Shown: positions 31,470 through 40,696 of the stretch, piece by piece
Layout of the letters: each line of letters begins with the position of its first letter
Position numbering within the stretch: the first letter of the stretch is position 1
From: Escherichia coli
GTDB taxonomy: Bacteria; Pseudomonadota; Gammaproteobacteria; Enterobacterales; Enterobacteriaceae
Reading direction: 5' to 3' (one strand)
Assembly (NCBI RefSeq): GCF_044647545.1
Contig: NZ_CP172818.1
Length of the DNA: 64,000 nucleotides
The notes under the pieces: model-generated
Seen by the model: the letters and a program-made list of their open reading frames with translations, nothing else
Told to the model about the DNA's origin: nothing
Databases searched by the model: none
Program-made: the position numbers and the translations under genes

Positions 31470-31629
31470 CAGTAAAAAGTGTGACCCGGTTCACGTAGCG
31501 ATAGTTTTTACTTATCACTAACTGATTTTTCACAGTTTTAACCGTTCATAAATTACCCTGACACAATCATCTGCATTAAAGTAGATGCCAGTTTCTTTGG
31601 TCTGATAAATAACGGTTATCGGTGGCGTC

Positions 31630-32538
31630 ATGGCTTTTCAGGTAAAAATTCATCAAATTCGGGCTTTTGTTGAAGTGGCTCGTCAGGGCAGCATTCGCGG
31701 AGCGAGCCGAATGTTGAATATGTCGCAACCGGCACTGAGTAAATCTATTCAGGAACTGGAAGAAGGGTTGGCGGCACAACTCTTTTTTCGCCGTAGTAAA
31801 GGCGTGACGTTAACTGATGCCGGTGAAAGTTTTTATCAGCACGCCAGTCTTATTCTTGAAGAGCTGCGCGCAGCGCAAGAGGATATTCGCCAACGACAAG
31901 GGCAACTGGCAGGGCAAATTAATATCGGCATGGGGGCCAGTATTTCCCGCAGTCTGATGCCAGCTGTCATATCTCGTTTTCATCAGCAGCATCCGCAGGT
32001 AAAAGTACGCATTATGGAAGGGCAACTGGTGTCGATGATTAATGAATTGCGCCAGGGAGAACTGGATTTCACCATCAATACCTATTATCAGGGACCCTAC
32101 GACCACGAATTTACTTTTGAGAAATTACTGGAAAAGCAATTCGCGATCTTTTGCCGCCCGGGACATCCCGCCATTGGTGCCCGTTCGATCAAACAGTTAC
32201 TGGACTACAGCTGGACAATGCCGACGCCACACGGCAGCTACTACAAACAGTTGAGTGAATTGCTTGACGATCAGGCGCAAACGCCACAGGTCGGCGTAGT
32301 CTGCGAGACGTTCTCAGCCTGTATCAGTCTGGTGGCAAAAAGCGATTTTCTCAGCATACTACCTGAAGAAATGGGCTGCGATCCCTTGCACGGACAGGGG
32401 CTGGTGATGTTGCCGGTTAGCGAAATTTTACCGAAAGCGGCCTATTATTTGATTCAGCGGCGTGATAGTCGCCAGACACCACTGACCGCGTCATTAATCA
32501 CGCAATTCCGGCGAGAATGCGGCTATCTGCAAAGTTAA
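31630..32538 (+). CDS. abgR: LysR-family transcriptional regulator
   Basis: 302 aa ORF with N-terminal HTH (SIRGASRMLNMSQPALSKSIQELE), divergent from abgABT. Confidence 0.85.
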   Translation: MAFQVKIHQIRAFVEVARQGSIRGASRMLNMSQPALSKSIQELEEGLAAQLFFRRSKGVTLTDAGESFYQHASLILEELRAAQEDIRQRQGQLAGQINIGMGASISRSLMPAVISRFHQQHPQVKVRIMEGQLVSMINELRQGELDFTINTYYQGPYDHEFTFEKLLEKQFAIFCRPGHPAIGARSIKQLLDYSWTMPTPHGSYYKQLSELLDDQAQTPQVGVVCETFSACISLVAKSDFLSILPEEMGCDPLHGQGLVMLPVSEILPKAAYYLIQRRDSRQTPLTASLITQFRRECGYLQS

Positions 32539-32544
32539 AACTGC

Positions 32545-32640
32545 ATAAAAAAATAGAGTCTGTCGACATCCGCCAGACTCTACAGTACACACAGCAGTGC
32601 ATCCGCGTCTTAAATCCGGCATGGTCTCCTCTGCGCCGGT
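32545..32640 (-). ncRNA. mcaS: small regulatory RNA McaS (IsrA)
   Basis: Reverse complement reads ACCGGCGCAGAGGAGAC...GAGTCTGGCGGATGTCGACAGACTCTATTTTTTTAT, matching the recalled McaS sequence including terminator hairpin and U-tail; abgR-smrA intergenic location. Confidence 0.8.
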
Positions 32641-32867
32641 GACTGTGTTATAACGGTTTTAACCTTTAGTTGCCAATTTTCTTCAGTGACAGATTTCACG
32701 AAAATATAAGTTACATTATTAATATCGTGAATGAATAATCATGCATAAGCATTTTGCTTAAAATATCGGCAACATTTGGAACTTATTACTGGAAATTTGG
32801 GTAATACGTTGTTGGACCAGCCCGGTCTGGTTATCATATCGCGCTCTTAATTGCGGGAGGATGTAAC

Positions 32868-33431
32868 ATGAACCTTGACGACAAATCGCTGTTTCTTGAC
32901 GCCATGGAAGATGTCCAGCCGCTGAAACGTGCTACAGATGTCCACTGGCATCCAACGCGTAACCAACGTGCGCCGCAGCGTATCGACACGCTGCAACTTG
33001 ATAATTTCCTCACCACTGGATTTCTCGACATCATCCCGCTAACTCAGCCGCTGGAGTTTCGGCGGGAAGGGTTGCAACATGGGGTGCTGGATAAGCTGCG
33101 CAGTGGTAAATACCCGCAACAGGCGAGCCTGAATCTTTTGCGCCAGCCGGTGGAAGAGTGCCGCAAAATGGTGTTCAGTTTCATTCAACAAGCCCTGGCG
33201 GATGGTTTGCGTAATGTGCTGATTATTCATGGTAAAGGGCGGGAAGATAAATCGCATGCCAATATTGTCCGCAGCTATGTGGCGCGCTGGTTGACCGAAT
33301 TTGATGATGTCCAGGCATATTGTACCGCGCTACCGCATCATGGCGGCAGCGGGGCGTGTTACGTCGCACTACGTAAAACGGCACAGGCAAAGCAAGAAAA
33401 CTGGGAGCGCCACGCTAAGCGCAGTCGTTGA
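32868..33431 (+). CDS. smrA: Smr-domain DNA endonuclease
   Basis: 187 aa ORF with C-terminal Smr domain (LIIHGKG...). Confidence 0.8.
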   Translation: MNLDDKSLFLDAMEDVQPLKRATDVHWHPTRNQRAPQRIDTLQLDNFLTTGFLDIIPLTQPLEFRREGLQHGVLDKLRSGKYPQQASLNLLRQPVEECRKMVFSFIQQALADGLRNVLIIHGKGREDKSHANIVRSYVARWLTEFDDVQAYCTALPHHGGSGACYVALRKTAQAKQENWERHAKRSR

Positions 33432-33451: not shown

Positions 33452-34684
33452 TTATGCCGCCAGCACGCGGTTGCGTCCATCATTTTTCGCCCGATACAAA
33501 GCATCATCAACGCGTTTAAACAGCTCATCGATGCTTTCATTTCCTTCGTGATGCGCCACACCAATGCTGACGGTAAAGCGTGGTAAGCCCGAAATACTCA
33601 CTTTTGCCACGCTTACGCGGATAGTTTCAGCCAGCGAAAGCGCGGTATCCAGTGGGGTTCTTGGTAGCAATAAGACAAACTCTTCGCCTCCCCAACGAAA
33701 CACCAAATCGCCTTTGCGAGCGCAACTTTCGAGGGTGCGGGCGAGGGCGCATAACACCTCATCACCTTTAGAATGCCCATAGAGATCGTTAATGTGTTTA
33801 AAACGATCGGTGTCGATGAGCAATAAGCTGTAATCCTGAGCGATGGCGAGGTGCTGCATTTGGCCAGGCTCGGTAATGTGATAAAACTGTCGCCGATTCA
33901 GTAATCCGGTCATCGCGTCATGGTGGGCAGCATGTTCCAGCTGCTCCTCCAGCCGTTTTTGCTCAGTAATATCATGCACAATACATAACATGAGCTTGTC
34001 GCCATAAATTTCAATCGGCCCAGCATAGGTCTGCACATGACGAGTCGAACCATCCGCCAATTTATGAACAAAATTCAAAGGCTTATGGCCACCGGGTAAA
34101 TGCGAAATTTCATGCATGATAGGCATGACGCGTCGCCCGAGCATATTTATTTCCCAGGTATGTTTCTGGCACATCGTTTCATGGTTATAACCATAGAAAT
34201 TGAGCGCGGCGAGGTTAGCATCAACGATTTGGCCATCTCGTGAGGGGTCAATCAACAACATTGGTGCAGAGTTAGTCAGAAAAAAGCGCGCATAAAAACC
34301 TTGTTTTTTGCGCTGATAATTTGCCGAGCGACTGGCTTTTAAACCCAGCGTTGCCGGCGCTTCGATACCTTCGAAAATAATCACCGGTTCTGTTTCTGTC
34401 AGCTCTCGCAAAACAAGCCGACAGCTTAATGCTGTTTCCTCTTCTTTACGTTGAACGGTGAGGATTTCGATAATATCGTGTTGGTTTTGCAGATCGGAGA
34501 GGTATTTCGGCAGTTCTTTTTGTGAGGAGACGGAATAGGGACCGGTTCGTAGCTGACTAAACGTGAGGTCTTGCATCAACAGTCGCGCCGCGCTGTTGGC
34601 ATAAATTAACTGTTCCTCAAAGGGCGAAACGATCCAGACAGGACTGGTGAGTAAGTCCAGGGTATTGAAGTTGTGCGTAATCAT
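33452..34684 (-). CDS. dgcM: diguanylate cyclase with PAS and GGDEF domains
   Basis: ORF 33452-34744; likely start MITHNFNTL at 34684; GGEEF motif (FRWGGEEFVLLLP). Confidence 0.8.
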   Translation of the reverse strand: MITHNFNTLDLLTSPVWIVSPFEEQLIYANSAARLLMQDLTFSQLRTGPYSVSSQKELPKYLSDLQNQHDIIEILTVQRKEEETALSCRLVLRELTETEPVIIFEGIEAPATLGLKASRSANYQRKKQGFYARFFLTNSAPMLLIDPSRDGQIVDANLAALNFYGYNHETMCQKHTWEINMLGRRVMPIMHEISHLPGGHKPLNFVHKLADGSTRHVQTYAGPIEIYGDKLMLCIVHDITEQKRLEEQLEHAAHHDAMTGLLNRRQFYHITEPGQMQHLAIAQDYSLLLIDTDRFKHINDLYGHSKGDEVLCALARTLESCARKGDLVFRWGGEEFVLLLPRTPLDTALSLAETIRVSVAKVSISGLPRFTVSIGVAHHEGNESIDELFKRVDDALYRAKNDGRNRVLAA

Positions 34685-34917
34685 TGAGATCCCGTTATTT
34701 TTATCAATTTTTGTTGCTATCCGATCGCAAAAAAGCCACGTCATATGATCAGATAATTCTGATAATGATAGACGCTATTTAACACTTCACACGGTTTGTA
34801 TACGGAAAAGCATTTTGCTTTTTGTATTCAATTTAGACAGAATTTTATTAATCATTTCAGGGTAATGGGGTGATGAGATGTTGCGTAACAGGGCCAGAAG
34901 GCTAGACTACAAAATAA

Positions 34918-36017: not shown

Positions 36018-36139
36018 GCAGGTGAATGCAACGTCAAGCGATGGGCGTTGCGCTCCATATTGTCTTACTTCCTTTTTTGAATTACTGCATAGCACAATTG
36101 ATTCGTACGACGCCGACTTTGATGAGTCGGCTTTTTTTT
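36018..36139 (+). ncRNA. fnrS: FNR-activated small RNA FnrS
   Basis: Sequence GCAGGTGAATGCAACGTCAAGCGATGGGCG...CGACGCCGACTTTGATGAGTCGGCTTTTTTTT matches recalled FnrS, ending in a terminator hairpin plus 8 Ts; zntB-dbpA intergenic location. Confidence 0.8.
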
Positions 36140-40414: not shown

Positions 40415-40696
40415 TTAATTTGAATACAATGCAATTCTCGAGGACTGAAGTTTCTCGCAATTAAAATTTATCAGTTTTACTTTCTGCTCTCTGGAAACGC
40501 CTGCTTCTTTTTTACCTGAGAGCATTTTTTCGCATTCTGATTTCGTTAGTTTAGATTTTGAATATCTTGTCCAGTTAGTAGGAGTGCCACCTTCCTTTTC
40601 AATAGTGGCGGTAATTTTATACATGAACACCTCCATTATTATTTCCAGTGGTTCGTTTATTCCATCTTTCGAGTGCTTCTTTTTCACTTCCACCAT
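40415..40696 (-). CDS. ydaC: prophage protein of unknown function (alternative internal starts give a 69-73 aa product)
   Basis: 93 aa maximal ORF; internal Met candidates (MEVFMYKITATIEKEGG...); overlaps the 3' end of ralR. Confidence 0.6.
   Translation of the reverse strand: MVEVKKKHSKDGINEPLEIIMEVFMYKITATIEKEGGTPTNWTRYSKSKLTKSECEKMLSGKKEAGVSREQKVKLINFNCEKLQSSRIALYSN

Follow-up and report, generated by a model that had tools for sequence, protein, structure and literature searches.

The small RNA McaS regulates the switch between motility and biofilm formation, as work since 2012 has established, and it was the first sRNA shown to act via both Hfq and CsrA. In K-12-type strains the RNA was detected by Northern blot and cloned as a cDNA of "94 nt, including the 7 U's at the 3' end" (PMC4824073). 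It is CRP-dependent and a member of the cAMP-CRP regulon (PMC3634460). On the csgD mRNA McaS has two binding sites, and together with Hfq it guides endonucleolytic cleavage to an A/U-rich region further upstream (PMC6061853). It activates flhDC via pairing with two regions of the flhD leader (PMC3634460). Its GGA motifs are given as "4 total", two of which bind CsrA (PMC10729762), and through these two exposed motifs pgaA is de-repressed (PMC4098024, PMC10729762). McaS also associates with the RNA polymerase core, and its RNPs include S1, Hfq and ProQ (PMC4824073).

Like the CsrA-sponge sRNAs of the CsrB/CsrC type, McaS titrates CsrA by exposed GGA motifs (PMC4098024, PMC10729762). The four motifs of McaS, two of them shown to bind CsrA (PMC10729762), are far fewer than those of CsrB; McaS also binds Hfq and base-pairs with targets, neither of which CsrB and CsrC do, and it forms a separate Rfam family. 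The Hfq-dependent sRNAs RprA, OmrA/B, GcvB, RydC and RybB target overlapping parts of the csgD 5' UTR as McaS does, and RprA and GcvB trigger the same upstream csgD cleavage (PMC6061853), but these RNAs are unrelated to McaS in sequence and answer to other signals. McaS is the csgD-targeting sRNA that was reported as CRP-controlled and flhDC-activating (PMC3634460).

We analysed 64,000 nucleotides of Escherichia coli contig NZ_CP172818.1 (assembly GCF_044647545.1), and this whole stretch is called the window here. Our analysis indicates, with a probability of about 97%, that positions 32547-32640 on the minus strand are the mcaS gene (isrA, IS061), encoding a 94-nt trans-acting sRNA that binds Hfq and CsrA and has its own promoter and terminator. 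The features of the locus are as follows.

31630-32538, plus strand: abgR, ORF of 302 aa, named from RefSeq records 100% identical over 1.2 kb
32547-32640, minus strand: mature McaS/IsrA sRNA, 94 nt, from the RF00115 match, the mapping of K-12 mcaS b4426 and the 94-nt cDNA (PMC4824073)
32547-32583, minus strand: intrinsic terminator and Hfq-type 3' end, predicted by the MFE fold as well as the Rfam consensus
32586-32601, minus strand: csgD-pairing core, RNA nt 40-55, UGCACUGCUGUGUGUA, a 16-nt perfect Watson-Crick complement of the K-12 csgD leader
32608-32589, minus strand: stem-loop 2, RNA nt 33-52, from the Rfam consensus structure
32616-32639, minus strand: stem-loop 1, RNA nt 2-25, a 12-nt loop closed by six pairs, from the Rfam consensus structure
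32647-32676, minus strand: sigma-70-like promoter read by hand, with -35 TTGGCA at 32676-32671, an 18-nt spacer and -10 TATAAC at 32652-32647
32685-32700, minus strand: CRP-like palindrome cGTGA-aatctg-TCACt, two mismatches to TGTGA-N6-TCACA, centred ~52.5 bp upstream of +1
32868-33431, plus strand: smrA (ydaL), ORF of 187 aa, named from RefSeq records 100% identical over 1.2 kb

A scan of the whole window with Rfam 15 at the gathering threshold found four families, RF00115 (McaS/IsrA) among them. The RF00115 match lies at 32640-32545 on the minus strand, where the reverse complement reads ACCGGCGCAGAGGAGACCAUGCCGGAUUUAAGACGCGGAUGCACUGCUGUGUGUACUGUAGAGUCUGGCGGAUGUCGACAGACUCUAUUUUUUUAU, and scores 117.0 bits against a gathering score of 42 (E = 3.9e-21). 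It spans model positions 1-96 of 96 untruncated, with maximal posterior probabilities throughout. The 5' end of McaS (an A) falls at window position 32640 and the 3' end at 32547, just past the seven-U run, the Rfam model reaching 2 nt beyond the mature 3' end, to 32545.

These results agree closely with the original prediction, which had placed McaS on the minus strand at 32545-32640 and had named the absence of a McaS covariance-model match as its refutation; the model, when run, gave a full-length match at nearly three times the gathering score. Its wider span of 32540-32645 carried 5 nt of padding on each side; the core of 32545-32640 holds, and the mature 3' end as annotated in K-12 is 32547. 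It had further described a hairpin with a GGCGGATGTCGAC loop and a U-tail, and GGCGGATGTCGAC is indeed the top of the 12-pair terminator hairpin (nt 58-88), followed by seven U. The position that it gave, between abgR and smrA, is confirmed by the flanking ORFs and by the layout around K-12 mcaS (b4426). It had also remarked that an ORF-only track lacks the gene, and the RefSeq PGAP records likewise show no feature under the match; mcaS is missing from both because it is non-coding.

The window copy corresponds to the K-12 gene McaS/IsrA/IS061 (b4426, RF00115) in locus order (abgR-mcaS-smrA), strand and ends. The K-12 MG1655 record has an ncRNA mcaS ("small regulatory RNA McaS") at 1405658-1405751 on the complementary strand between abgR and smrA, and its 94 nt align to window 32547-32640 in a pairwise alignment. 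In both, McaS lies on the minus strand, convergent with abgR, between two plus-strand genes. According to the RefSeq records, abgA/abgB follow beyond abgR to the left, and dgcM and zntB beyond smrA to the right. The two copies have in common three hairpins, four GGA motifs, the csgD-complementary core and the terminator. They are identical at 95 of 96 nt, the sole difference being A18 in K-12 and C18 in the window. This base lies in the stem-loop 1 loop, and what the substitution changes is only the fold predicted for the 5' half. Within the 120 nt upstream of the McaS start the pairwise alignment shows one base that differs from K-12, ~110 nt upstream. The window holds an sRNA gene that is already known and has been studied in detail, in its usual place.

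The neighbouring dgcM (ydaM), a diguanylate cyclase gene at 33452-34744 on the minus strand, is 0.8 kb from mcaS, so that two csgD regulators stand close together. YdaM has been described as the route by which RprA and OmrA/B inhibit csgD transcription indirectly (PMC3634460).

The Rfam consensus of McaS consists of stem-loop 1 (nt 2-7 with 20-25, enclosing a 12-nt loop), stem-loop 2 (33-38 with 47-52) and the terminator (58-70 with 76-88). The window RNA forms 24 of the 24 consensus pairs with G-U allowed, and the cmscan alignment flags no non-canonical pairs. The loop of stem-loop 1 holds the 5'-most GGA (nt 12-14, window 32629-32627) and C18 (window 32623). We found four GGA motifs, at nt 12, 24, 37 and 70, all of them invariant in the five alleles compared; the motif at nt 70-72 corresponds to window 32571-32569. 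The terminator hairpin at nt 58-88, which ViennaRNA predicts with confidence, has 10 + 2 pairs (58-67 and 69-70 with 76-77 and 79-88) and a GAUGU loop, and is followed by U88-U94; all 12 pairs form in 5/5 alleles. The consensus terminator scan overlooked it, as the rules of that scan forbid bulged stems, and it was read by hand instead. For the 5' half of the window allele, the ViennaRNA MFE fold at -33.1 kcal/mol differs from the Rfam three-hairpin structure at -30.2, a gap of 2.9 kcal/mol. At pair 7:20, the allele of E. coli ZJ3920 has C:G in place of G:U, a compensatory change. This was the one compensatory pair in a covariation test over five near-identical alleles, and 204 of 500 shuffles equalled it, there being too little variation among these alleles to test structure.

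The -10 hexamer TATAAC ends 7 nt before the annotated +1 of McaS, and both promoter hexamers are invariant in six alleles, the E. albertii allele and one from an alternative genomic context included. The consensus promoter scan overlooked this promoter since its rule demands T at position 6 of the -10, where TATAAC has C. The half-sites of the CRP-like palindrome are both invariant in the six alleles and the spacer between them varies in E. albertii. The palindrome is an imperfect match, and with its centre at -52.5 it fits neither the class I nor the class II textbook position. The window holds 19 CRP-consensus matches of such quality where 29 are expected, which is no enrichment, so support for the site comes from conservation and the literature. 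We list it as a candidate for the site behind the published dependence on cAMP-CRP. The same six-way alignment is invariant in the -35, the -10, the CRP-like half-sites, the four GGA motifs and RNA nt 37-81, and variable in the loop of stem-loop 1 and in the sequence further upstream.

Further upstream lies a second block, ATGCATGATTATTCATTCAC at window 32727-32746, or about -87 to -106 relative to the McaS start. E. albertii and the alternative-context allele keep most of this block, and the sequence between it and the CRP-like site varies among alleles. The block could be an additional site of regulation, acting either on mcaS or on the divergent smrA promoter. Elsewhere in the window, the divergent abgA-abgR intergenic region holds a near-consensus CRP-type palindrome, TGTGACCCGGTTCACG at 31480-31495, which has one mismatch and fits the CRP consensus better than any other site in the window.

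Of 5426 complete E. coli genomes, 5367 contain a match to the 96 nt of McaS, and in 5362 the match extends over 80% or more of the query. Approximately 1300 of these genomes have a McaS allele that matches at 90-95%. We read the altered flanks in one genome of this group, E. coli ZJ3920 (NZ_CP020545.1), in which McaS at 391-486 matches RF00115 over its full length with 112.8 bits and the promoter core is kept. Both flanks differ there: an AraC-family gene lies upstream in place of smrA, and downstream a pseudogene remnant of abgR lies beside ogt. The picture is consistent with replacement of both neighbours and retention of the promoter core and RNA in about a quarter of E. coli genomes (~1300), and with selection acting on McaS as a self-contained unit. 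The E. albertii copy scores 105.4 bits with RF00115.

E. coli FDAARGOS_943 (NZ_CP065615.1) is probably a natural mcaS-defective strain: its McaS at 1491-1590 scores 63 bits, with an interrupted terminator hairpin and a lost U-tail, and ~100 nt downstream of mcaS a gene for an IS4-family transposase starts. Six McaS matches and six csgD-leader matches were on records labelled as plasmids, which may be mis-assigned replicons or large chromosomal segments carried on plasmids. We also searched 298 Gb of genome contigs with the pattern CNGGCGGATGTCGACNG, whose 15 specified bases are too unspecific for this volume, so that the matches listed are mostly due to chance. Among the matches listed, E. albertii is the only real homolog, and an Enterobacter locus listed there gave no Rfam match.

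The csgD-pairing core UGCACUGCUGUGUGUA (nt 40-55) pairs with csgD -96 to -81. None of 500 shuffles reached 16 nt, the longest run among them being 12. The core overlaps the loop and the 3' arm of stem-loop 2 and is invariant in 5/5 alleles, E. albertii included. A test in 24-nt windows placed a second, adjacent duplex between McaS nt 53-76 and csgD -81 to -57. The csgD leader used was that of K-12 as a proxy, which is at least 99% identical in 4747 genomes. With the flhD leader, the longest perfect run was 7 nt, equalled by 260 of 500 shuffles and so not above chance in this simple run-length test, and local duplexes of ~-23 kcal/mol were predicted. The flhD step is therefore taken from the literature. 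When full-length McaS was paired with the csgD and flhD leaders in RNAduplex, the predicted duplexes ran unrealistically from end to end and were near the shuffled background, with 28 and 19 of 300 shuffles as good; the perfect-run and 24-nt-window tests took their place.

Taken with the published work, the mechanism would run as follows. Upon nutrient limitation, cAMP-CRP would activate the sigma-70-type promoter of mcaS, per the literature. With Hfq, the central region of McaS (nt ~40-76) would pair with the csgD 5' UTR and lead to endonucleolytic cleavage, so that curli would be repressed. Pairing with the flhD 5' UTR would open an inhibitory structure and activate flagella. The exposed GGA motifs would titrate CsrA, so that CsrA targets such as pgaA would be de-repressed and more PGA would be made.

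The other three families found by the Rfam scan lie to the right of mcaS.

36018-36135, plus strand: FnrS, RF01796, full-length, 134.8 bits against a gathering score of 60
40440-40618, plus strand: RalA, RF02694, full-length, 225 bits
59683-59881, plus strand: IS009, RF02111, full-length, 205 bits, a candidate RNA family

FnrS is 3378 nt from the McaS 5' end and is another known sRNA that an ORF-only track would omit. In the type I toxin-antitoxin pair RalR/RalA, RalA is the antitoxin sRNA. We take this pair to belong to the Rac prophage, and this suggests that a Rac-like prophage starts a few kb to the right of mcaS.

The stretch could in principle hold a small protein-coding gene, since an AUG at RNA nt 19-21 (window 32622-32620) opens a minus-strand ORF of 42 codons (32622-32494) and has an AGGAG 3 nt upstream. 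This spacing is short, however, and the AGGAG coincides with the 5'-most GGA, a motif that when mutated gave weaker csgD repression (PMC10729762). The AUG is lost (U20 to G) in the ZJ3920-type allele of E. coli and in E. albertii, where the RNA is still a full-length McaS match, and the 42-codon frame runs through the terminator, the 94-nt transcript holding only ~26 codons and no stop. With a start codon that is not conserved and a frame that has no stop inside the transcript, we rejected this reading as extremely improbable. Equally remote is the view that the sequence is a structural intergenic element only, i.e. the abgR terminator or a palindromic repeat, with no independent RNA gene. The hairpin does start 7-9 nt past the abgR stop codon at 32538, and convergent genes sometimes have a bidirectional terminator in common. 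But the U-run is on the minus strand only: the plus strand is A-rich before the hairpin and has ACAGTACACA after it, with no T-run. In addition, the covariance model matches all 96 positions, well beyond the hairpin alone, a conserved promoter is suitably spaced from the McaS 5' end, the McaS unit persists where abgR is a pseudogene remnant, and a discrete 94-nt RNA was seen by Northern blot and as cDNA in K-12-type strains (PMC4824073). The T-run on the wrong strand, the 96-nt model match, the conserved promoter and the persistence beside a decayed abgR led us to discard this reading as well.

Another question is whether McaS with C18 behaves differently from the K-12 RNA, an alternative long-range fold of the 5' half partly burying the 5'-most GGA and thereby weakening CsrA binding or csgD repression. 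With C18 the alternative MFE fold is at -33.1 kcal/mol versus -30.2 for the Rfam structure, while the MFE fold with A18 retains stem-loop 1, and the predicted probability that GGA 12-14 is unpaired drops from 0.86 with A18 to 0.44 with C18 (ViennaRNA). Mutation of this GGA weakened csgD repression (PMC10729762), and the identical 96-mer, carried for example by NZ_CP033850.1, occurs in at most 362 of 5426 complete E. coli genomes. Against this, the refolding is a thermodynamic prediction whose gap of 3 kcal/mol is within model error, and in vivo the structure of sRNAs is reshaped by Hfq and CsrA. The Rfam consensus moreover shows variation at position 18, which lies in a loop, and C18 is also found in the divergent ZJ3920 allele. 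We therefore consider it unlikely that the C18 RNA behaves differently in this way, and it is somewhat more doubtful still that C18, by making the 5'-most GGA less exposed, might tune both CsrA binding and csgD repression in this lineage.

The reading of this locus as mcaS brings with it the regulation described for K-12: for the present strain we infer expression, CRP control, binding of Hfq and CsrA, and the regulatory outcomes from the K-12 literature. The practical value of the finding is in annotation. mcaS is invisible to ORF-based tracks and has no feature in the examined RefSeq PGAP records, and a covariance-model pass is therefore needed to label it. If the effect predicted for C18 were true, the McaS of this strain would be a natural allelic variant of a dual-function sRNA.
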